A stretch of DNA of 28,011 nt from Pedosphaera sp. (lineage in GTDB: Bacteria > Verrucomicrobiota > Verrucomicrobiia > Limisphaerales > Pedosphaeraceae), in the NCBI GenBank assembly GCA_028293465.1, contig JAQGOT010000131.1, positions 1 to 28,011 of the forward strand. Direction: 5' to 3'. The notes under the pieces are model-generated. The model ran no database searches and had not been told where the DNA came from. It saw only the letters and a list, made by a program, of their open reading frames with translations. This document shows, piece after piece, positions 1 to 11,976 of the stretch. The stretch's first letter is position 1. Each line of letters starts with the position of its first letter. The position numbers and the translations under genes are program-made.

Positions 1-1428
1 CCGTGACGGACGGGAGAGGCCGGAGTTGATCTTCAAGGCCGCGCTAAACTCGGCAAACCAGGTTTTCAGTTCGGGCGGTGAGGGATCAAACGGATTCAGC
101 AGGTTCAGCGGGTTGATGCCTTCCACGCCAATGATTTCCCAATCAATGGAATACGGCGGTGCGTGTTCCCGCAGCAAATGCATGATTTGCGAGCGCGCAT
201 GGGCGCGGGAGTCAGAGGGCGGTTCCATTATCGAGGCCTCAATCACTTTGTCTGAGAGATCCCAGGCCGGCGGTGGTTGGCTCATGGCCCAGCCCAGGCT
301 GCGGGTTGGATCGATGTGATGAAATTCCAAATCCTGCGCCTTCAGCCACGGATCATCCCAATCAATCTTCTCCTGCTCCATGAATTTCCGGAGCAACCAC
401 CGTTTCGTGATCCAATCCACCTTGCCAATCAAGGCTTGCGGCTCCAGCGCCAAGGCCTTCAACGTGGAACCCCAGACATCCAGCAATACATCAGTCTCGG
501 TGTCGCGTCCGTGGAACTCCGTCCAGGCGGCGTCGAAAAATTTCTGCAACAGTTCCACCGCATCGGTGGACCGGCCGTCCGCGAGTCTCACCTGCCAGGG
601 CCCGTCCGGTTGATGCGACATGGCGCGGAAGGTCTTCACCGCGTCGGCCAGCACCAGCTTCGGCAAATGATTAATTTCCAGCAGATCGAGCATCAACGAC
701 GTGGTGCCGACCTTCAACAGCACGGTGGCGGGCAGCACACTGGTGTCCCCGTGCAGCAAATGTAACCGCCGGAACTTGCGGGGATCGCCTAGCGGCTCGT
801 CCCGCGTGTTTATGATGGAGCGGTTGAACTGTACCCATTCGTACAAGTCGTTGTTGATGTAATCCGCCCGCTGACTCATCTGGTAAACGCCATCCGAACC
901 CGGCCGGCTGATTTCCCCCCGCCACTCCGCCGCCAGCGTGGTTCCCACGCGCCCGGCCCCCGTGTAAAGCAGGCGCAAGGTGAGAAATGTCAGCAGCGAG
1001 AGCACGTTGGTTTCGGTCAAGGGAGCCGAGCGGCGCACGAGGTAATTTTCGTGGCATCCGAAAGTCGCCCCCGTGTAATGGTCGATGTTGTTGCGGATGA
1101 AACTGACTTCGCCCGCGAGGCCCAGCGACTTGAGGGCGTGCACCGCCAAGGCATCCCCGGCGCGGTCGTACTTGAGGATGTCGATCAGGGAATAGCACTC
1201 CGGCGTGCAATATTCAAGGTGCCCCATGTCGATGTAAACCCGCCCGCCATTAAACAGAAAACCGCCGTTGCCCGGCGGTTCGTCCCAATCGCGGTGATGC
1301 ACATCAATCAACCCAAATTCTTCGCGTCCAAAAATCCAATCGCGCACGCGCTCGACGGCGATGAAAGAACCCGCCGGCGTGTTCGTCAGACAACCATATT
1401 CTGTTTCCAGTCCTGCTATACGATTCAT
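1..1428 (-). CDS. pafA: PafA-like Pup/UBact-protein ligase (3' end runs off the window; missing from ORF track)
   Basis: Hand translation from ATG at 1428 is open to position 1 (476 codons): MNRIAGLETEYGC (GhExE motif), NGGRVYIDMGHLEYCTPEC, NNIDHYTGATFGCHENY, QRAD, INTRDEPL, FRRLHLLHGD. Lacks the Dop-type DHAH motif and Dop loop. Last gene of an arc-dop-modifier-prcB-prcA operon. Confidence 0.9.
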   Translation of the reverse strand, partial: MNRIAGLETEYGCLTNTPAGSFIAVERVRDWIFGREEFGLIDVHHRDWDEPPGNGGFLFNGGRVYIDMGHLEYCTPECYSLIDILKYDRAGDALAVHALKSLGLAGEVSFIRNNIDHYTGATFGCHENYLVRRSAPLTETNVLSLLTFLTLRLLYTGAGRVGTTLAAEWRGEISRPGSDGVYQMSQRADYINNDLYEWVQFNRSIINTRDEPLGDPRKFRRLHLLHGDTSVLPATVLLKVGTTSLMLDLLEINHLPKLVLADAVKTFRAMSHQPDGPWQVRLADGRSTDAVELLQKFFDAAWTEFHGRDTETDVLLDVWGSTLKALALEPQALIGKVDWITKRWLLRKFMEQEKIDWDDPWLKAQDLEFHHIDPTRSLGWAMSQPPPAWDLSDKVIEASIMEPPSDSRAHARSQIMHLLREHAPPYSIDWEIIGVEGINPLNLLNPFDPSPPELKTWFAEFSAALKINSGLSRPSR

Positions 1429-1553: not shown

Positions 1554-2294
1554 TCATAAGCCGGCCTGCGCCAGGCTTAACGGCTCATAACGAGCATGCC
1601 GCGGACTATTCCGCGCCAGCCAGCCCAGTTCCACCACCCGCTCGCTGGAGCTCGCCCGCCAGCCAGCCTGACGTTGGGCCTCTTCCGGCAGCCCTTCACC
1701 AAAAGGCTTGTTCTCCACCAAGCACCACCAAGCCTGCAACAGCACATCCGCAACCTCCCGACGGTCGGTCTTGCCCGCCAGCGATCCGTTCAGCCACGCT
1801 TGGGCGGCCGCTTCCGGTTCCGGTTGGCTGGCGGCGACCATCACTCCGCCCGCTTGAAACCTGAAACCGCCGTCAAAGTGCAGCCGCAACAACAAATCTT
1901 TCTCCGGCGCATTGCCAATCTCCGCCAGGAGCAACTCCACCAGAAACGGGGCGGTGAAGATCTGCTCAAAGTTGGTCTTCAACTGCGGGCTCAATCCAAA
2001 ACTCACCAACCGCCGCAGGCTCACGTCCTCGGGTGCCCGGGTGAACGACTCCGTGTGCGCCGCGTCGATGGCCGCCTGCCTGATCTTTTCAATATCCGCC
2101 GGATGCCCCAATCCCGCCAGCGCGTGACGGTCAAATAATTCAAAAACCTTCGACTGCCCCCCGCCGACAGCGAGCAACAAGATGCCATCGGGCAGGCTGG
2201 CCGCGAACGCGGGCGAACCTCGCTTGAGCTGTTCGCGCACGTATTCACGGCGGTTCGCCACCGCCTCCAACCACCGATATGGTTCTTCAGTCAT
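1554..2294 (-). CDS. prcA: 20S proteasome alpha subunit, bacterial type
   Basis: 246 aa; RREYVREQLKRGSP, KVFELFDRHALAGLGHPADIEKIRQAAI, RRLV, PFLVELLLAEI and LHFDG align by eye with actinobacterial PrcA; directly downstream of prcB. Confidence 0.9.
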   Translation of the reverse strand: MTEEPYRWLEAVANRREYVREQLKRGSPAFAASLPDGILLLAVGGGQSKVFELFDRHALAGLGHPADIEKIRQAAIDAAHTESFTRAPEDVSLRRLVSFGLSPQLKTNFEQIFTAPFLVELLLAEIGNAPEKDLLLRLHFDGGFRFQAGGVMVAASQPEPEAAAQAWLNGSLAGKTDRREVADVLLQAWWCLVENKPFGEGLPEEAQRQAGWRASSSERVVELGWLARNSPRHARYEPLSLAQAGL

Positions 2295-2390: not shown

Positions 2391-3164
2391 TTATATCTTA
2401 AGAAAACCGGACTGCTGTTGATCCGTGATGGATTCCACGCCGCTGCTGCGGAGCAGCTTGATGGTGGCGTAGGTTTGGGTCGCGGGATTCACCCCACCCG
2501 TCGCGGAGTCGAACTCCGAGGCCACCATCAACAGGCGCAGGGCAAATTTGACCGCCTCACCCAGCTTCATCTGGGAGGGGCGCGGGCTGCCGTATTGCTC
2601 CTGGAAGCTCAACACGCTCCGGATCGTCCCCGAGCCCGATCCGGAGGCGACGTAGTCCACGGATTGAAATTGCGCCCCGAGCGGGTCGTAGAAATAGATC
2701 TGGGGTTTGGCCGGAGAAACAGTTTGATCCAAGCCCGCGAACAGCGGGGCCACCACCCCGACGCCTTGCATGGTCATGGGCAGATTCTCGCGCAACAACC
2801 GGGCCAGGGCCCGCACCTTCGCCGGGAGGCTGAGGGGTTGTAACTGGCTGCGCCGGTAATACTCGAAGGAAGTTTGCAGGACACGGGCCATCTCGAAAGC
2901 GGTGGCTGGGACACCGGCAATGGCGAGCAGGGAGGTTGCGTCAATCTCGATGACCTTGTCCACGCGATCGGTGACAATGACGTTACCCGCAGTGGCGCGC
3001 CGGTCACCGGCCATCAACACCCCCTCGGCGAACTCGAAAGCAAAAACGGTCGTTGCCTGCGTCTGCACCGGAGCGGTGGACGCAGGAACGATGGGAACAG
3101 GCGCCAGCTTGTGGGTGGCGAGCAGGGACATGAAGTCACCCGCAATCAGCGTCCCGGGGTTCAT
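2391..3164 (-). CDS. prcB: 20S proteasome beta subunit (Ntn hydrolase) with 37-aa propeptide
   Basis: Mature start TTVFAFEFAEGVLMAGDRRATAG with Thr1, Asp17 and Lys33 at canonical spacing, plus the GSGS motif; ATG overlaps the modifier stop codon (ATGA). Confidence 0.95.
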   Translation of the reverse strand: MNPGTLIAGDFMSLLATHKLAPVPIVPASTAPVQTQATTVFAFEFAEGVLMAGDRRATAGNVIVTDRVDKVIEIDATSLLAIAGVPATAFEMARVLQTSFEYYRRSQLQPLSLPAKVRALARLLRENLPMTMQGVGVVAPLFAGLDQTVSPAKPQIYFYDPLGAQFQSVDYVASGSGSGTIRSVLSFQEQYGSPRPSQMKLGEAVKFALRLLMVASEFDSATGGVNPATQTYATIKLLRSSGVESITDQQQSGFLKI

Positions 3165-3331
3165 TGGCCCGTTCTTTGGCGATACCTTTTAGCCTGGTCC
3201 GGATCCACTTTGCGCATCCGTTTCAGGAGCTCCTCCGTGTTGGGTTTTTCTACCTTGGGTGAATTAGGTCCCTCTCCGCCGCCGCTTGGGCCAGCGCCGG
3301 GAGGCCGGTTTTTTTGTGCTTGGTCTGGCAT
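3161..3331 (-). CDS. ubact: UBact, ubiquitin-like/Pup-analogous protein modifier (56 aa; missing from ORF track)
   Basis: Hand translation: MPDQAQKNRPPGAGPSGGGEGPNSPKVEKPNTEELLKRMRKVDPDQAKRYRQRTGQ*. Disordered Pro/Gly-rich N-terminus, C-terminal G-Q, occupies the pup slot between dop (14-nt gap) and prcB (ATGA overlap). The C-terminal half matches the UBact pattern as I recall it. Confidence 0.92.
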   Translation of the reverse strand: MPDQAQKNRPPGAGPSGGGEGPNSPKVEKPNTEELLKRMRKVDPDQAKRYRQRTGQ

Positions 3332-3345
3332 AAACTTGTTAACAA

Positions 3346-4869
3346 TTATGACATCAATTTCAGCATTCGCAAATCCTCCGGCGAACGCGCCTCGTCGATG
3401 TGTCTAGCATACCGCGAAATCTCCTCGGGCGCGAACAAATCCATGAAAGAAATTTTTATCGGCCCGTCCTGTCCCCGCAGGGTGATGTGGTCCCATTGCG
3501 CTGATTCCACGGCGTCTGCGAATTTCTGGATGAGCTTGCCGCGCAAACAAGCCCGGGTGGTCGCGGGCGGTTCGCACATGGCCCAGCGCACCGCCGTTTC
3601 CTCCGGCACGCCCAACATGGCCCCACTCTGTTCCAAGCCGTAGTACAAACCTTCCGCCAGATCCAGCCGGTGATATTCCAAATCCAGACTCTGCAGCCAC
3701 GGGTCGTCCGGGGCCAGGTTTTGTGCCGCTTGAAATTCCAGCACCAACGCCAGTTTGGCCACCCAATCCAGCCGGTTGCGGCAACGCATCACGTCCGCCT
3801 CCAGGTCGTTCAGCACCTGCTCCCAGTCCGCCACCACGGCCTCCCGGGCGGGTGAGCTGAGATCACACAACTCCCTGACCGCCGCCAGGTAATCACGTTG
3901 CACTGCCAATCCGGTTGAGGGGCGCGCACCCTGCAACTCAAGTTCCCAGCGGAAGGAAGGATCCCGCGAAATGGCCGGCAAGGCCTCCAGCGGCTCCGCC
4001 AGTTGCGGCCAGGCCCGCCGCGGATCACGCACCAGGGCCTCCAACACCAACCCGGTGACACCGATCTTCAGCCGGGTCGCAAACGGCGACATATTGGCAT
4101 CGCCGATGATGACATGAAACCGCCGGTAGAGTTTGGGATTGGCGTGCGGTTCGTCGCGGGTGTTCACCAGCGGCCGGCGTTGCATGGTGTCCACGCTTTG
4201 CAGCTCGCTGAAAAAATCGCTGCGTTGCGCAATCTGGAAGTGGGACGAGATGAACCGATCCTCTTCCTCGATGGCGAACTTGCCCGCGCCGGCAAAAATT
4301 TGACGCGTGACCAGGAACGCCTGCACACCTTGGGCCAATTGTCCCCAGGGCAGCGCGCGGGTGAGCAGGTAATTCTCGTGGCAGCCGTAGCTGTGGCCGC
4401 GGAAGTCAGTGTTGTTTTTGTAAAGCCGGACGGTGTCCCCGCGCTGGGCGGAGAGCTGTTGCGCGCACGCCATCATAATGCGCTCCCCAGCGCGGTCCTG
4501 CGCCAGCAACTCGTCCAGCGTGCTGCATTCGGGGGTGCAATATTCGGGGTGGGCGTGATCGTTGTAGAAGCGCGCGCCGTTGCCCAGCACCAGGTCGCTC
4601 TTGATTTCGACGTAGCTCAGCTCGCGGTGAGAGTCCTGCGCGAAATAGTTGGCCTCGTCCGTATCCTGGCGCAACTCCGGCACGTGAAACCCGCGCATGT
4701 CCGCGTGCGGATCTTCACTGTCATAATCCCAACGCATCAAAACGCCGGGCTCGACCACACTGCGCACCAACGCGATGGATTCGGCCACCACGTCCAGGTG
4801 CTCATCGTGCTCGCGGGCGATGCCGATCTCCGTCTCGATCCCGAACTGGATTATGTTTGACGGGGTCAT
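3346..4869 (-). CDS. dop: Dop-like deamidase/depupylase (PafA/Dop family)
   Basis: FGIETEIG (GhExE), Dop-loop-like RWDYDSEDPHADMRGF, NGARFYNDHAHPEYCTPEC, SYGCHENY, RPLVNTRDEPHA, RRFHVIIGDANMS. Start moved from TTG 4965 to ATG 4869, just before the conserved motif (507 aa). Confidence 0.9.
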   Translation of the reverse strand: MTPSNIIQFGIETEIGIAREHDEHLDVVAESIALVRSVVEPGVLMRWDYDSEDPHADMRGFHVPELRQDTDEANYFAQDSHRELSYVEIKSDLVLGNGARFYNDHAHPEYCTPECSTLDELLAQDRAGERIMMACAQQLSAQRGDTVRLYKNNTDFRGHSYGCHENYLLTRALPWGQLAQGVQAFLVTRQIFAGAGKFAIEEEDRFISSHFQIAQRSDFFSELQSVDTMQRRPLVNTRDEPHANPKLYRRFHVIIGDANMSPFATRLKIGVTGLVLEALVRDPRRAWPQLAEPLEALPAISRDPSFRWELELQGARPSTGLAVQRDYLAAVRELCDLSSPAREAVVADWEQVLNDLEADVMRCRNRLDWVAKLALVLEFQAAQNLAPDDPWLQSLDLEYHRLDLAEGLYYGLEQSGAMLGVPEETAVRWAMCEPPATTRACLRGKLIQKFADAVESAQWDHITLRGQDGPIKISFMDLFAPEEISRYARHIDEARSPEDLRMLKLMS

Positions 4870-4873
4870 TTGT

Positions 4874-4984
4874 TTAATCGCCGGTGGAACCGGAGGTTTC
4901 TCGAAAGAGGAGGGTTGGCATCGGACCTTTGCGTGGAATCGAAGGAGGCAACTTTTCAATCTCAACTTCGAGTCGCTTTTTCAT
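4874..4984 (-). CDS. Putative 36-aa small protein between arc and dop
   Basis: ATG 4984 to TAA 4874: MKKRLEVEIEKLPPSIPRKGPMPTLLFRETSGSTGD*; co-oriented, stop codon 4 nt before the dop ATG. No family recognised. Confidence 0.3.
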   Translation of the reverse strand: MKKRLEVEIEKLPPSIPRKGPMPTLLFRETSGSTGD

Positions 4985-5032: not shown

Positions 5033-6730
5033 TTATACGACGCCGCTCCCCAGCGCATCCTTTTTAAGCTGGCGCACCGGGCCGAGCTTGATGACGTTCT
5101 CCGGATCGAAGTCGGTCAACTTGAGCCAGTCCTCCGTTACGTCCGTGGGCGGGAAGAGATCGTTTTCCTCATACTCACGCTGCAAGGCGCGCAACAAATC
5201 CTCCCGGGTCAGATGGGTTTCCTGGCCGGTGTCGATCGAGCGTTTGATGGCAAAACTCTTCGCCCGCTCTACCACCGCCGCAATGATCGCCCCGCTCGCG
5301 AGATCGCCGCGATACAGGAAATCCTTCTTGCCGCTCCGGAACACAATTTCCAGGAACTGGTTTGAGGGCGTGTGGGAATAATGCGCCTCGGTCACCACCC
5401 GCGCCAAATCCGCGCGTGGTTCGGCCAAAGGCAGGCTTTCGCGCAAATAGATTTCGTAGATGGCCTGTGCCCCAGCTTGATCCGGCCGGTTCACCTTGAT
5501 TTTCCGGTCGATGCGTCCCGGCCGCAGGATCGCCGGGTCGATCAGGTCCGCCCGGTTCGAGGCGAGAATCACCACCACATTCTGCAACACCTCCAACCCG
5601 TCCATCTCCGTGCAGAACATCGGCACCAAGGTGCTGAGAATGCTGTTATAACGGCCGGCGCGGCGTGTCCCCAGAATGGATTCCGCCTCGTCGATGAAAA
5701 GGAATGCCAGCGCGCCATCCCGGGCGCGTTCGCGGCATTGGATGAAAAGGTCGCGCACCTGTCGCTCGGATTCCCCCACCCACATGTTCAAGATTTCCGG
5801 ACCTTTGACATGCAGGAAGAATTCCGGATGGTCCACACCGGTTTGGGCCTTGAGTTGTTGCCGCAGATTGTAAGCGGTGGCTTTGCCGAGCAAGGTCTTG
5901 CCGCAACCCGGCGGTCCGTGCAGCAGAAAGCCCTTCGGCACCGTGTGCTCGAAACGCTTGAACAGATCTCGATGCAGGAAGGGGAGTTCAATGGTGTCAC
6001 GAATCGCCTGCACCGCCTCCGTTTGGCCGCCCACGGCGGCCCACGGGATTTCAGTGACCGTCTCCAGGGAGCGTTCGATGCGCCGCCCCATGCCGATCAC
6101 TTCCAGCGCGACGCGTTGGTTGACATCCAACCGCACCTCCATGCCAGGCTTCAGTTTTTCCTTCACCAGCAAAGCGGAGCGGAGGAGCACCAGCGAATTG
6201 AAGCCCGCTTCCTGCCCGATGCGCAGCCGTCCATCGGAAAGCAGTTCATCAATTCGGACAATCGGCCCGTTCTTGTCAAAGCCCAATCCCTGCACCACCG
6301 CGAAAGCTTCGTTGCAGAGGACCCGCTGCCCCATTTGCAGACTGTTCTGCGGGATCTTGGGGTCAACGCGGCAGACGTAATCAGTGCCGCCGACACAAAC
6401 GTGCGCTTTGTCATTTTCCACCGGCATCAAGAAGGTGCCGATGCGGAAGGCCGGCGAGCGGAGCTTCTCGACAATTTCGTCCAGCTTTTCAATCGCCTGG
6501 CGGGCTTGATCGTTCTGCTCCTCGATCGCGGTAATACGATCGCGGAGATAAATCAAATCCATCAGCGAAGAATGGCGCGGGGGCAATTTGCCCGCAATAA
6601 TGTCAACGAGTTGAAGGGCGGAAAGCGATTCTAACTCCTCGTGTGAAAGCATCTGACCAAGCGGTGAGGCTCCCTCCGTGGGGGACTCAATCTTGGGCGA
6701 TGGCGTTGGTTTTTTCTTGGATTCACCCAT
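5033..6730 (-). CDS. arc: Proteasome-associated AAA+ ATPase (ARC/Mpa family)
   Basis: N-terminal coiled coil, OB-like region, Walker A GPPGCGKT, pore loop VKGPEILNMWVGESE, Walker B FIDEAES, second region of homology ASNRADLIDPAILRPGRID. First ATG at 6730 (6736 is TTG); heads the proteasome operon. Confidence 0.95.
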   Translation of the reverse strand: MGESKKKPTPSPKIESPTEGASPLGQMLSHEELESLSALQLVDIIAGKLPPRHSSLMDLIYLRDRITAIEEQNDQARQAIEKLDEIVEKLRSPAFRIGTFLMPVENDKAHVCVGGTDYVCRVDPKIPQNSLQMGQRVLCNEAFAVVQGLGFDKNGPIVRIDELLSDGRLRIGQEAGFNSLVLLRSALLVKEKLKPGMEVRLDVNQRVALEVIGMGRRIERSLETVTEIPWAAVGGQTEAVQAIRDTIELPFLHRDLFKRFEHTVPKGFLLHGPPGCGKTLLGKATAYNLRQQLKAQTGVDHPEFFLHVKGPEILNMWVGESERQVRDLFIQCRERARDGALAFLFIDEAESILGTRRAGRYNSILSTLVPMFCTEMDGLEVLQNVVVILASNRADLIDPAILRPGRIDRKIKVNRPDQAGAQAIYEIYLRESLPLAEPRADLARVVTEAHYSHTPSNQFLEIVFRSGKKDFLYRGDLASGAIIAAVVERAKSFAIKRSIDTGQETHLTREDLLRALQREYEENDLFPPTDVTEDWLKLTDFDPENVIKLGPVRQLKKDALGSGVV

Positions 6731-6736
6731 GACCAA

Positions 6737-7355: not shown

Positions 7356-8555
7356 TCAGCCGCCAAATCTCCTCCTGTTTCCGACATTGACCTCGGCCGC
7401 GCCCACCCTGGTTGCCAACCGATTGGACTCGATTTCGGTCAGATCCGTGTTCACGAGCAGGATGGATTTGGGCTTGCCCTGCTCGGTGCGCATCAACGTC
7501 CAGCGGCTGTGCACGCGGACCTCATGCCCATCTTTGGCGACTTGGTGCAGGTCTCCGCTCCAGGCACCTTGTTCCATGACGGTCTTCTTGGCCGCTTCAA
7601 ATTCGCCGTGGTCGGGATACAACAGTTCGGTGGCCGGCCGGCCCAAGATTTCGTCCTTCGTCCAGCCATACAAGCGCACAGCGCCTTCATTCCAGAATTG
7701 GATGCGGTCCTCCATGTCGCGCACCAGGATGGCATCCGGGTCCAGGTCGAGCAAGCGGGCCTGCTCCTGGATTTGCTCCGCCGCCAGCTTGTGGCCGGTG
7801 ATATCGTGATACAAGCCGATGAGCAACTTGCGCCCGTACAAAATCAACGGCGAAACGCGAACCTGCACCGGCACACGCGCGCCATCCGCCCGGACGATTT
7901 CATCCTCATAGTCCATGGTGGACGTTTGCCCGTTCTCAGCGACAAACCGGCGCCGATGTTCTTCAAATATCTCGGGTGACTGAAACTGGCTCTGGTTCTT
8001 GCCGACGATTTCACTCCGGCTGCGGCCAAGGAGGGCCTCACCTTGTTTGTTGGTGTCTAGGATGCGGCCGGTCTGGACATCCGTGAGAAAGGCGGCGTCG
8101 CCCAGGCTTTCAAACAACTGGCGGTATTTATGTTCGGATTGGCGCATTGCCTCTTCCGCCCGCTGGCTCTCGTTACGCTCCTGTTGATCGCGTAACGCCC
8201 GACGCACAGCGGGGCCGAGACGCGAGAGCCGGTTCTTGAAGATGTAATCCGTGGCGCCTTGCTTCAAGCTTTCCACCGCCAGCTCCTCGTCGATGGTGCC
8301 CGAGACGAAGATGAAGGGCGTCCCGGGCCGCCGGTCTCGCGCCAGCTTCAAAGCGCGCATGCCGTCGAACGAAGGCAGTGTGTAATCCGAAAGGATGCAA
8401 TCAAACTCCCGTTCGCAGAGGGCGGCCAGGAAAGTTTCGCCCGTGTCCGCGCTCACCACCTCGCGCGACAATCCTTCGGCCAGAAGTATTCGCCGGATGA
8501 GTTCGGCATCGTGCCAATCGTCCTCCAGGTGCAAAATGCGAAGTAAAGTATTCAT
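7356..8555 (-). CDS. Receiver domain plus two PAS domains, with no kinase or other output domain
   Basis: ILHLEDD, ILSDYTLP (phospho-Asp), FIFVSG, GATDYIFK = REC; then YRQLFESLGDA...PAS and LLDLDPDAILVRD...WNEGAVRLYGW...PAS. ATG 8555 chosen (399 aa), 10 nt after the GH2 stop. Confidence 0.85.
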   Translation of the reverse strand: MNTLLRILHLEDDWHDAELIRRILLAEGLSREVVSADTGETFLAALCEREFDCILSDYTLPSFDGMRALKLARDRRPGTPFIFVSGTIDEELAVESLKQGATDYIFKNRLSRLGPAVRRALRDQQERNESQRAEEAMRQSEHKYRQLFESLGDAAFLTDVQTGRILDTNKQGEALLGRSRSEIVGKNQSQFQSPEIFEEHRRRFVAENGQTSTMDYEDEIVRADGARVPVQVRVSPLILYGRKLLIGLYHDITGHKLAAEQIQEQARLLDLDPDAILVRDMEDRIQFWNEGAVRLYGWTKDEILGRPATELLYPDHGEFEAAKKTVMEQGAWSGDLHQVAKDGHEVRVHSRWTLMRTEQGKPKSILLVNTDLTEIESNRLATRVGAAEVNVGNRRRFGG

Positions 8556-8565
8556 AATATCCAAA

Positions 8566-11457
8566 CTACCATTCAATAATGACCGTTGGGCAGACGGGAT
8601 AGCGGCCACATTCCGCACCATAAACCGTCAGGCCGCCTTGCGCCAACGCGTCGGCGGGCACCACCAGCCGCAGGTGCACGTGATCGTCCAGGGTGTGGCG
8701 GGCAATCTGTTGCAGTTGCTCGTCCTCCGCAAAAGCGTGAGCCAAATAGCCATAAGCTCCCAGTCCGCCGCGCAGGTAGCTCAACGCCCCGCGCGCATCA
8801 TGCGGATGATTCCGGACGAACGCGCCGTACACTTGGATCCCGTTCAAAAACATCTGGAGCGTGGTGGGGAAGATGTCGTCATCGGTCTGTGGAGTGTCGA
8901 TCCGATGCGAGGAGACCTCGGCCAGGACGCGGATGCGTCGCGCCTTCGAGATGTCCGCACCCTCCAACGGCAGGACCCACTCGAAGAAGCCGTGGCCTTG
9001 GCCATAACAGGAATCCTCCGCCCTTTCGCGCTCGCGCTCACCCGCCCCGCCGCTCCATTCCGCGGTGGCCCAGTCACCGGGCGGGCCCCGCAGCACGAGT
9101 GCCCGGGGGACATCCTCGCGGCTGGCGGGATATTGGTCGGACACAAAATACTGGTGAAAATTCTTCGCGATGACGGTTCCTTCCGCATTATAAGCCTCGA
9201 CGCAGAAGGTGCAGAGCATCGGCTCCGCAGGCATTTGCATTTCGATGGTATGGGCATGCACGACACGCCGATGAGGGAACTCGATCGGCACACTCCCGCG
9301 CGCGAGATCCCGTTGGACGCGGCCGCGCGTGTCCATGCCATCCAGGCGCCAGCGCAATGAAATATTCCGGTTGGGCCGGGACGAGAAATGGGAAGAGGCC
9401 ACGTCCACGCGCACCACCTCGCCGGGGGAACGGCGGGAGATGGGTGCCGCGTCCAACGGCAACGTATCGCTTTCATTGATGATGGCAGGGTCGTAGCCAA
9501 ATTCCTTCGGCGTCCGGTCGTAATTCAGGAAGCCATTGTGCTCCCATTCGACATCATGAAGCTCCGTGAAAATGTAAGCGGAAATCTGCCCGTATCGGCG
9601 CAACTCATTGGTCAGAAATTTGAACGTCCAACTGACATCCACGTCGCCATCCAAGGCCCCCACCCCGCCGTATTCGCTGTTGATCAGCGGCTGGCCTTTG
9701 TGCGCATAGCCGGGCACGTAATTGTAGTTGGAGCCGGGGAACGTGGACTGCACGACCTTGGCAATGTGCTCCTTGGCCCGGGCATAATCATTGATGTAAA
9801 AATGCCATGAATTGATGTCGGTATCGCCGTGGGCATAATAATCCAGATGCTCCCATTGGACGACGCTCATGTCCTCGATCAGCCGGGTGGGGTCCAGCTT
9901 TTTCGCCAACGCCCACATGCTTTGCACCCACACGTGCGCACTAAGGTTCGCGAGCCTGGCCCGGGTCGATGGCGGGGTCAGTTCCGCCACGGCCGTCGCC
10001 CCCGCACTCACAGCGCTGGCGGAAACCGCCAGATTGGTCCTCAATCGCGGCCGGTGTTTGGGAGTGGTGGGATGGATGAGATCCACAAACTCCACCTGTC
10101 CACCAAAGCCCCAGGTTTCGTTGAAGGTGCACCAGGCAAAGATGGAAGGGTGGTTGAAATCCCGTTTGATGGCTTCGCGCATCGTAGCTTCGTAGCGTCG
10201 CCGTCCCAGCGGCGTGTCGCCCCCTTCGCCGAAGTTCGGAAAGTCCGCCATCAACAACATCCCCATCTTATCAGCGTAGTAAAGCAACAGGGGGTCATCG
10301 ATCTTGATGTGGATGCGCAGGAAGTTAAACCCCACCTTCTTGGCATACGCGATATCATTCTTTAACGTTCGCACGTCTCCGGCGGTATAGACCCCGTCCG
10401 GGTAAAAGGATTGATGCAAGGCCCCACGCAGGTAGCGCGCCACGCCGTTCAAGCGCAGAGCCACCGGGGCTTCGGGGGGCTCGCCGGGCGCAAAGTCAAT
10501 TTTCCGCATGCCGAAATAGCTCCGGACCGTGTCCATCACCCGGTCCTGCTGCCGCAAATGGAACCGTAGTTTGTAGAGATGAGGTTCATTGGGGCTCCAG
10601 AGCAACAACGGATCGACCTTCATGGTGCCTTCGGCCATCCCGGTACTGACTTTGAAAGTAGCGGTTTGCGGGGTGCGGCTGTCCGGCGCAATGATTTCCA
10701 CCGCCACCGTCCCCTCGCCCTCAACGTGCTGGCACTCGATCTGAAACCGTGCCGTGCCGGCGTCGATGTCCGTGAACACGCGAAAGTGATCAATATACGA
10801 AGCGCTGCGCGGCTCGACGAACACAGTTTGCCAAATGCCGCTGACGGTGGTGTACCAGCGCCATTGTTTGCCGACGGGTTGCTCGTGGTTATCCACCGGA
10901 TCTTCCACGCGGAACACCAGCAGGGCGCGTCGTTTGCCATCCGTCCCGGGTTCCCCCAAGGTGTCGGTGAGATCGAATTCAAACGGGGTGTAACCGCCCT
11001 CGTGATGGCCGAGGTGTTTGCCATTCGACCAGCAATCGGTAAAGAAGTCCGCTGCGCCGATGGTTAGAATGACGCGCTTGCCCTCCCAATCCGGGTTATT
11101 CGGAATCTCGATGAGGCGCCGGTACCACCCCACTTCATACCGGGGGGCGGAGCGATGATTGGCGGCGTTTACTTCCAGCGGGTTGAGGAACACGCGCGTG
11201 GCGTAGTAGTTCTCGTTGCCGGCGGCATCCCCCTCCCCCCAGGCGGCAAGCGATTCCCAGCAAAAGGGAACGATGATTTGCTCGCGCCATTCCAATTCGT
11301 CGGGGCGGAACCATTCTTCCTCCACCCCGCGCCGGTGCCGGTCAAAACGGAACTGCCAGGGGCCATTTAAATTTAACCAATCAATCCCCTCCCGGGTGCC
11401 CCGCTGGCGGTCGGGCCGGGGATACTCTGGCCGAGGATAGGCAAAAGAAATCGACAT
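8566..11457 (-). CDS. Glycoside hydrolase family 2 with a long C-terminal extension
   Basis: YPRPEYPRPD, WLNLNGPWQF, HEGGYTPFEFDLT, SGIWQTV, GFNFLRIHIK, WCTFNETWG (acid/base Glu), PLINSEYGG (nucleophile Glu). ATG 11457 chosen (963 aa); no signal peptide seen. Confidence 0.9.
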   Translation of the reverse strand: MSISFAYPRPEYPRPDRQRGTREGIDWLNLNGPWQFRFDRHRRGVEEEWFRPDELEWREQIIVPFCWESLAAWGEGDAAGNENYYATRVFLNPLEVNAANHRSAPRYEVGWYRRLIEIPNNPDWEGKRVILTIGAADFFTDCWSNGKHLGHHEGGYTPFEFDLTDTLGEPGTDGKRRALLVFRVEDPVDNHEQPVGKQWRWYTTVSGIWQTVFVEPRSASYIDHFRVFTDIDAGTARFQIECQHVEGEGTVAVEIIAPDSRTPQTATFKVSTGMAEGTMKVDPLLLWSPNEPHLYKLRFHLRQQDRVMDTVRSYFGMRKIDFAPGEPPEAPVALRLNGVARYLRGALHQSFYPDGVYTAGDVRTLKNDIAYAKKVGFNFLRIHIKIDDPLLLYYADKMGMLLMADFPNFGEGGDTPLGRRRYEATMREAIKRDFNHPSIFAWCTFNETWGFGGQVEFVDLIHPTTPKHRPRLRTNLAVSASAVSAGATAVAELTPPSTRARLANLSAHVWVQSMWALAKKLDPTRLIEDMSVVQWEHLDYYAHGDTDINSWHFYINDYARAKEHIAKVVQSTFPGSNYNYVPGYAHKGQPLINSEYGGVGALDGDVDVSWTFKFLTNELRRYGQISAYIFTELHDVEWEHNGFLNYDRTPKEFGYDPAIINESDTLPLDAAPISRRSPGEVVRVDVASSHFSSRPNRNISLRWRLDGMDTRGRVQRDLARGSVPIEFPHRRVVHAHTIEMQMPAEPMLCTFCVEAYNAEGTVIAKNFHQYFVSDQYPASREDVPRALVLRGPPGDWATAEWSGGAGERERERAEDSCYGQGHGFFEWVLPLEGADISKARRIRVLAEVSSHRIDTPQTDDDIFPTTLQMFLNGIQVYGAFVRNHPHDARGALSYLRGGLGAYGYLAHAFAEDEQLQQIARHTLDDHVHLRLVVPADALAQGGLTVYGAECGRYPVCPTVIIEW

Positions 11458-11976
11458 AATAAAAGACTGCTCTCTAGAAAGGGACAGGAACCCGGACTTC
11501 CTGCTCAAAAACCGGTGGGTTTGGACACGGATTGTTTTTTCGGGCGGAATCCTGAGGTTGTGACGCCTCAGTTCCGCGATGGCCTGACATGACCCGGCGG
11601 TTTCAGTGATAGAGCATCACCAGTCCTCCTCTACGTAAAGCCGCTTTGGGTTATCGTCAAATCCCACAGCCAAAGAAAATGTGGTTAAGCAAAAACTTCT
11701 TTTGGTGCCGCTTCCGACTTGGCCCACGCAGGCTGAGTTGGGGTGTAACACGGTGGCATGTACATTTCACTAAATTGGTCTTAATGATTACGCCAGAGTC
11801 AGTTTGCGTTGCATGCGATCCTCCTCCCACCCCGAAAAGCCCTTGGCGCGAGTGCTTCTTGCCGCCGTGAGAGCTGCTGGCTTGCGCCGGATTATCGGGC
11901 ACGGGAGATGGCCCGCGAGGGCGTGCGGTGGGGGATGGAAGGTTTCGGTTATCATGCGGGTAGGAACAGGCGTGCC

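Follow-up and report, generated by a model that had tools for sequence, protein, structure and literature searches.

A UBact gene in the pup position of a Verrucomicrobial proteasome operon, and the changes in its predicted partner proteins that track tag type

A described counterpart of the locus analysed here is the actinobacterial Pup system, whose six genes (for Mpa/ARC, Dop, Pup, PrcB, PrcA and PafA) and their order are the same as in our operon. UBact was reportedly described and named by Lehmann and co-workers in 2017 (BBRC 483:946). The family is already known, and both Pfam and the NCBI pipeline annotate it automatically; as an annotation the gene reported below is routine, and the wider interest lies in the machinery of UBact systems. 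As early as 2008, Verrucomicrobia (e.g., Methylacidiphilum), Nitrospirae and other groups were listed as having Pup orthologues that carry the C-terminal signature G[EQ] and are predicted to possess a bihelical core (Iyer, Burroughs and Aravind; PMC2588565). In the passages of that paper that deal with them, the orthologues outside Actinobacteria are treated as Pup, and neither charge inversion nor changes in the partner proteins are discussed. Here, we compare a Verrucomicrobial UBact locus with its actinobacterial counterparts; the encoded protein is, with good confidence, UBact, the Pup homologue of Gram-negative phyla, a small and mostly disordered tag with a Pup-like pathway, as deduced by homology, and most likely a remodelled interface.

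The window, i.e., the whole stretch of DNA that was analysed, is an entire contig of 28,011 bases from a metagenome-assembled genome (MAG) of a soil Verrucomicrobiota (5.1 Mb, 75% complete). Six genes are arranged on its minus strand in the order ARC-Dop-UBact-PrcB-PrcA-PafA, and the same order is found in relatives (Table 1). The C-terminus of PafA is missing, as the gene is truncated by the end of the contig. PrcA gave no Pfam match, and its assignment is based on the TIGR03691 score (Table 1) and on the gene occupying the same place in every related operon. Dop, PafA, PrcA, PrcB and ARC all score under the NCBIfam equivalog cut-offs (for Dop, 418 bits against the 492 of TIGR03688). The true start of Dop is probably the ATG at 4867-4869. 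The stretch separating arc and dop holds a frame of 36 codons (4874-4984, minus strand) for which Pfam gave nothing at E<=1; the frame is intergenic if Dop starts at this probable ATG (4869). Upstream of the operon, also on the minus strand, are genes for a response-regulator/PAS-domain protein (7356-8621) and for a GH2-family glycoside hydrolase (8566-11508).

Table 1. Features of the UBact operon, with positions in the 28,011-base window
Feature	Position	Strand	Evidence or remark
PafA orthologue (ligase)	1..1428	(-)	Pup_ligase 361 bits; 476 residues to window edge
PrcA, 20S proteasome alpha subunit, divergent	1554..2294	(-)	TIGR03691 58.5 bits, under cut-off
PrcB, 20S proteasome beta subunit	2391..3164	(-)	PF00227 95 bits; TIGR03690 152 bits, under cut-off
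UBact gene	3161..3331	(-)	56 aa + stop; ATG 3329-3331, TGA 3161-3163
UBact C-terminus RTGQ	3164-3175	(-)	
UBact predicted helix 2, PDQAKRYRQR	3173-3202	(-)	AF2 of Dop~UBact fusion, pLDDT 50-62
UBact predicted helix 1, TEELLKRMRKV	3206-3238	(-)	AF2 of Dop~UBact fusion, pLDDT 50-62
UBact N-terminal ~30 residues	within 3161..3331	(-)	rich in Gly/Pro
Dop orthologue (deamidase/deconjugase)	3346..4965	(-)	Pup_ligase family, 474 bits; 539 codons
Dop residues 398-433	3667-3774	(-)	hotspot of changes common to Dop and PafA
Dop-loop motif WDY..EDPH.D.RGF	4687-4731	(-)	in Dop orthologue
ARC/Mpa-type proteasomal AAA ATPase	5033..6736	(-)	
ARC C-terminus ...LGSGVV	5036-5065	(-)	without GQYL/HbYX motif
ARC pore loop 1 NMWVG	5774-5788	(-)	residues 317-321
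ARC coiled coil	6455-6565	(-)	residues 58-94

A first-pass annotation, made from the letters of the window and a list of its open reading frames, had proposed that a hidden UBact gene, missed in that list because of the length cut-off, occupies exactly the pup slot. The frame is indeed present on the minus strand, with a translation identical to the 56 residues then quoted, and lies between dop and prcB: its ATG is found 14 nt downstream of the stop of the Dop-like gene, and its stop codon overlaps the ATG of prcB as ATGA. A comparison with UBact profiles, which the annotation had suggested as a check, gave a match to the Pfam family PF20513 (84.9 bits against a cut-off of 27.8; E=3.2e-24) and to the NCBIfam UBact equivalog NF033388 (85.1 bits against a cut-off of 35; E=2.7e-24), the latter covering residues 4-56. 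The conserved motif of the family, LLKRMRKVDP.Q..RYRQR[ST]G[QE], is present in the window protein. Conservation in relatives was also borne out: a search among 5.8 billion proteins returned 731 homologues, the closest of which are 80-93% identical, several carrying the NCBI name 'ubiquitin-like protein UBact' in Verrucomicrobiota MAGs, and the nearest being named Verrucomicrobiota or Pedosphaera. A profile search of a library clustered at 50% identity yielded 175 cluster representatives. Within the phylum of the window, UBact was detected above the family cut-off in 11 of the 401 genomes sampled, and its distribution there is sporadic. Against the sequences of the PDB, UBact found nothing beyond a designed protein, at an E-value that points to chance (E=5.1).

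When the last 42 codons were compared with those of 12 related loci, 16-23 synonymous and 4-15 non-synonymous differences were counted, the latter lying, as judged by eye on the sequences, mostly in the variable N-terminal part; this excess of synonymous change indicates that the frame is under clear purifying selection. The N-terminal sequence MPDQ.QK.R is conserved among the homologues, and the ATG at 3331 is therefore favoured as the start, although no Shine-Dalgarno motif is found 5' of it. The short length of the frame and the lack of that motif are what could be said for a chance open frame in the intergenic spacer; such a reading has next to no probability, and is refuted by E-values of about 1e-24, by the 731 homologues, by the excess of synonymous changes and by the conserved N-terminus, and no family match was found for the plus-strand frames that overlap the gene. 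Judged by its sequence, then, the window ORF is a genuine gene and a typical UBact, with nothing of note to set it apart from the rest of the family. Contigs matching 3108-3315 (95% identical) and 3135-3291 (2 mismatches) occur in two libraries labelled metatranscriptomic; one of them shares its study with the DNA library that holds the best match, and the other is flagged as probably DNA. They give a weak hint of transcription, as DNA carry-over or close relatives could account for both.

UBact differs from Pup in ways that the first-pass annotation had described correctly. The window tag ends in TGQ, with one Gly ahead of the terminal Gln in place of the GG[EQ] of Pup, and it is basic in its C-terminal half (net charge +4 for residues 30-56 and +5 overall) where Pup is acidic, so that it lacks both the GG[QE] end and the acidic helical half that characterize Pup. 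Both are family-wide traits. UBact sequences end in [ST]G[QE], the Q- and E-forms both being found, as in Pup, and the RYRQR[ST]G[QE] end is invariant, or nearly so, both in the family alignment and among some 140 cluster representatives. Over the last 27 residues, the charge is +3 to +7 in nearly all of the roughly 140 representatives with an intact C-terminal motif; its mean is +4.0 in 11 genomic loci versus -6.3 in 46 actinobacterial pup genes, and for the 30 residues before them the values are +1.0 and -5.5. Thus, about 10 charges separate the two tags within the final 27 residues, and the preceding 30 add about 6: UBact has kept the length, the disorder and the G[QE] end, while its charge, compared with that of Pup, has been inverted by about 16 units.

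The Pfam model of Pup (PF05639) did not match the window protein at E<=10, nor any protein of the whole MAG. An alignment of the UBact and Pup profiles with hhalign is statistically weak (probability 5.8%, pairwise E 0.0065) and is colinear and anchored at the C-terminus, with LLKRMRKV placed on LLDEIDDV and RYRQRTGQ on AYVQKGGQ; hydrophobic positions and the Tyr are retained between the two, and charged positions are inverted. Further likenesses are the place of the gene between dop and prcB, with orthologous Dop and PafA (see below), and the two helices predicted for the C-terminal half, which unlike those of Pup are separated by a conserved Pro.

Following the single-chain format in which PafA-Pup had been crystallised (PMC12053664), the window Dop and UBact were folded with AF2 as one chain, in their natural order and joined by one X, with 64 aligned Dop homologues. 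The alignment used had no rows of UBact homologues; MAFFT gave a poor result when short rows of UBact were added to the fusion and the Dops, and that alignment was set aside. In the resulting model Dop is confident and the first 30 residues of UBact are disordered, followed by helices at residues 32-42 and 44-53 with a break at the conserved Asp-Pro (pLDDT 50-62). On Dop and PafA, Pup forms two orthogonal helices (PMC8599861), and the predicted pair in UBact is consistent with this arrangement, to which the model lends weak support. The conserved Pro argues against UBact forming the single helix of 30 residues that Pup forms on Mpa, and the expected lack of one long helix would fit the coiled coil of the Verrucomicrobial ARC, which according to the alignment is about 20 residues shorter than that of the Pup-type protein.

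The two members of the Dop/PafA family could be assigned to their actinobacterial counterparts. In a tree of 98 proteins, from eight UBact loci and 46 actinobacterial loci, the split that places Dop(UBact) with Dop(Pup) and PafA(UBact) with PafA(Pup) has a support of 0.989, by which the upstream gene is orthologous to Dop and the downstream gene to PafA. Residues W79, E84, P86, D89 and R91 of the Dop-loop are invariant in 65 Dops, and the AF2 model of the window Dop (pTM 0.83) is closest to the Dop structures 7OXY and 4B0R (target TM-score 0.90-0.92), with PafA behind. The Gln at the end of the tag and the presence of a Dop orthologue suggest the mycobacterial order of events, in which deamidation is followed by ligation through PafA.

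By homology with the actinobacterial Pup-proteasome system, Dop would turn the C-terminal Gln of UBact into Glu, and PafA would attach the side-chain carboxylate of this Glu to lysines in the targets. ARC would bind UBact, pull the disordered N-terminus through its pore and pass the substrate to the PrcAB 20S core, and Dop could also be able to take UBact off. Conjugation, deamidation and degradation are all deduced in this manner; a literature search found two reviews that mention UBact briefly, and no experiment on any UBact system. How a tag of inverted charge would be recognised is the question that the comparisons below address. The most likely answer is a remodelled interface, and not a coiled coil of ARC whose charge has simply been reversed. 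In such an interface the tag would retain its amphipathic LL..M..V and Y face, and Dop, PafA and ARC would differ from their Pup-type counterparts at specific contact residues.

The first-pass annotation had argued for a charge-swapped code, the ligase and the coiled coil of the ATPase having to read a tag of opposite charge. Spelled out, this would mean that the coiled coil of ARC and the groove of the enzymes are both acidic and read the basic KRMRK/KRYRQR tag, as the mirror image of a basic reader for the acidic Pup. The distance in charge between the two tags speaks for such a code, and the ARC segment quoted in its support (residues 70-92; 6461-6529, minus strand) is indeed acidic, with a net charge of -4. 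We compared ARCs together with their paired tags from 11, later 13, Verrucomicrobial loci and from 41 loci across Actinomycetota (the underlying tallies count four genomes marked unpublished, G405, G524, G452 and G492, which supplied no sequence and bear on no claim), numbering the positions of the coiled coil backwards from the conserved hinge Pro (residue 95 of the window ARC); as in all group contrasts given here, only three lineages, and hence few independent events, are involved. Over the 23 quoted positions, the summed position means are about -3.6 for the 13 Verrucomicrobial ARCs and about -0.3 for 36 distinct actinobacterial ARCs, and over the last 28 residues of the coiled coil the values are -2.9 versus -0.7. 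At positions -25, -19 and -9, K/R occur in 0.7-0.95 of the 41 actinobacterial ARCs and are replaced by D/E/N in the Verrucomicrobial ARCs, while position -23 is Glu in every Verrucomicrobial UBact-type ARC. Up to this point the comparison agrees with the annotation, the coiled coil being mildly acidic in the lineage of the window. The same figures go against the idea of a swap, as the coiled coil of the actinobacterial proteins is close to neutral, not basic. A protein search with the window ARC returned close Verrucomicrobial relatives only.

A scan of metagenome contigs provided a second UBact lineage, with 45 loci that include ARC and 41 distinct coiled-coil sequences over 45 residues. This lineage is probably Nitrospirota, going by the label of the Atlas cluster only; the names of the cluster members gave no taxonomy. 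Its tag, with the motif LLKRMRKVDPKQAERYRQRTG[QE], is of the same basic LLKRMRKVDP..RYRQRTG type as that of the window, but its coiled coil is neutral to basic: the summed position means for the 23 residues quoted are about +0.9, and the charge of the part that aligns with residues 60-95 is +2.8. No acidic position of the coiled coil is common to both UBact lineages and missing from the Pup-type ARC, although three conserved basic residues of Mpa are absent from both. Thus, of the proposed reading by opposite charge, the acidic coiled coil holds for the lineage of the window and is absent in the second lineage; judging from these sequences, it is a trait of the former and not a requirement for reading UBact. 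The Pup-Mpa pair is, on the same kind of comparison, likewise not described by 'opposite charge', as the OB and AAA domains of Mpa are strongly acidic (-8.4 and -16.8, respectively) though Pup itself is acidic. The comparisons remove the acidic coiled coil as the reader of the tag, an attractive model that appears too simple.

Other features of ARC track the type of tag. For pore loop 1, the sequence is NK[YFW]VG in every one of the 41 actinobacterial ARCs, against NMW[VL]G in the 11 Verrucomicrobial ARCs as well as in all 45 of the second lineage. The Lys of this loop is strictly conserved across Actinobacteria and contacts the threaded Pup chain (PMC8755798), and its loss in the UBact-type ARCs appears to parallel the loss of an acidic threading segment in the tag. 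The GQYL tail, by which Mpa docks on the 20S core, is found in 41/41 actinobacterial ARCs and is absent from all UBact-type ARCs sampled, which end in VV, VI, II or AV in 11/11 of the first Verrucomicrobial set and mostly in QII in the second lineage; the coupling of ARC to the 20S core may therefore differ in UBact systems.

For the enzymes, the charge of PafA speaks in favour of the charge-swap reading. The aligned core of PafA has a charge of about -3 in Actinomycetota, compared with -15.5 for one UBact lineage and -23.7 for the other, so that the UBact-type ligase is 13-21 charges more acidic. However, the core of Dop, for which the charge ranges from -16 to -20, is equally acidic in all three groups. 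Moreover, basic residues at the rim of actinobacterial PafA recruit substrates (PMC10465538), and the acidic shift of PafA may concern the substrates or their recruitment as much as the basic tag.

The changes that Dop and PafA have in common run in both directions of charge. In seven of 413 alignment columns, residues have changed in the same way in Dop and PafA of both UBact lineages, and because the split between Dop and PafA predates that between Pup and UBact, these changes are parallel. Two conserved K/R are lost, at Dop 414 and at Dop 423, the latter now being Trp, and acidic positions are gained at Dop 373 and 430, all of which would agree with an acidic groove for a basic tag. Conserved D/E are lost at Dop 278 and 433, however, and a basic position is gained at Dop 398, in each case with the parallel change in PafA, so that four of the changes are towards negative and three towards positive charge. 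This mixed direction suggests rewiring rather than inversion. Five of the seven columns lie inside Dop 398-433, which corresponds to two helices in the AF2 model, and the seven sites most likely mark, to go by their pattern of change, the tag-binding surface. Taken with the coiled coil of the second lineage, the neutral actinobacterial coiled coil, the acidic domains of Mpa and the constant charge of Dop, the mixed direction of these changes makes a charge-swapped code unlikely; just two UBact-type lineages were sampled, and the correlations cited in favour of such a code rest on very few independent events.

A further proposal can be made, namely that Pup and UBact are charge-inverted, mutually orthogonal tags, the specificity of which comes from few co-varying positions of the partners. 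The sites in question would be Dop 398-433 (PafA 336-371), where conserved K/R of the Pup-type enzymes are now W, A or E and a conserved Asp is lost, the substitution of the pore-loop Lys by Met, and the much more acidic PafA. We consider this possible but rather doubtful. If it is true, there would be no cross-tagging between the two systems, and swapping these residues would swap tag specificity.

An altogether different function for the 56-residue protein should also be considered: instead of being conjugated as a degradation tag, UBact could serve the proteasome operon as an accessory peptide, small and basic, such as an assembly factor, a regulator or a nucleic-acid-binding peptide. The protein is basic and disordered, no conjugates are on record, UBact-PrcB-PrcA stand apart from ARC, Dop and PafA in some genomes, and the ARC that would deliver its conjugates is devoid of the GQYL docking tail; each of these would suit an accessory peptide. 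Such a peptide would, however, leave unaccounted for the invariance of the C-terminal G[QE] and its alternation between Q and E, exactly like in Pup, the co-occurrence of UBact with orthologues of both Dop and PafA, and the parallel changes in the two enzymes that track the type of tag. We regard an accessory role as very improbable, and maintain that UBact is a Pup-like tag, most likely read by a remodelled interface. The comparisons name concrete sites for mutation: the pore loop of ARC, the tail of ARC, the stretch 398-433 of Dop and the net charge of PafA.

The arrangement of the operon is not uniform among the genomes that carry it. UBact-PrcB-PrcA, with or without Dop, are separate from ARC in several genomes (L123, L125, L127, L128 and L177), and in some of those they are also separate from Dop and PafA; a different contig was found to carry ARC in four of the Verrucomicrobial genomes. 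Lastly, one metagenomic gene call (protein P0315 of locus L184; 158 aa) has both a Pup_ligase and a UBact Pfam match, and is either a natural read-through or fusion of Dop and UBact or an artefact of assembly or gene calling on a contig of 940 bases.
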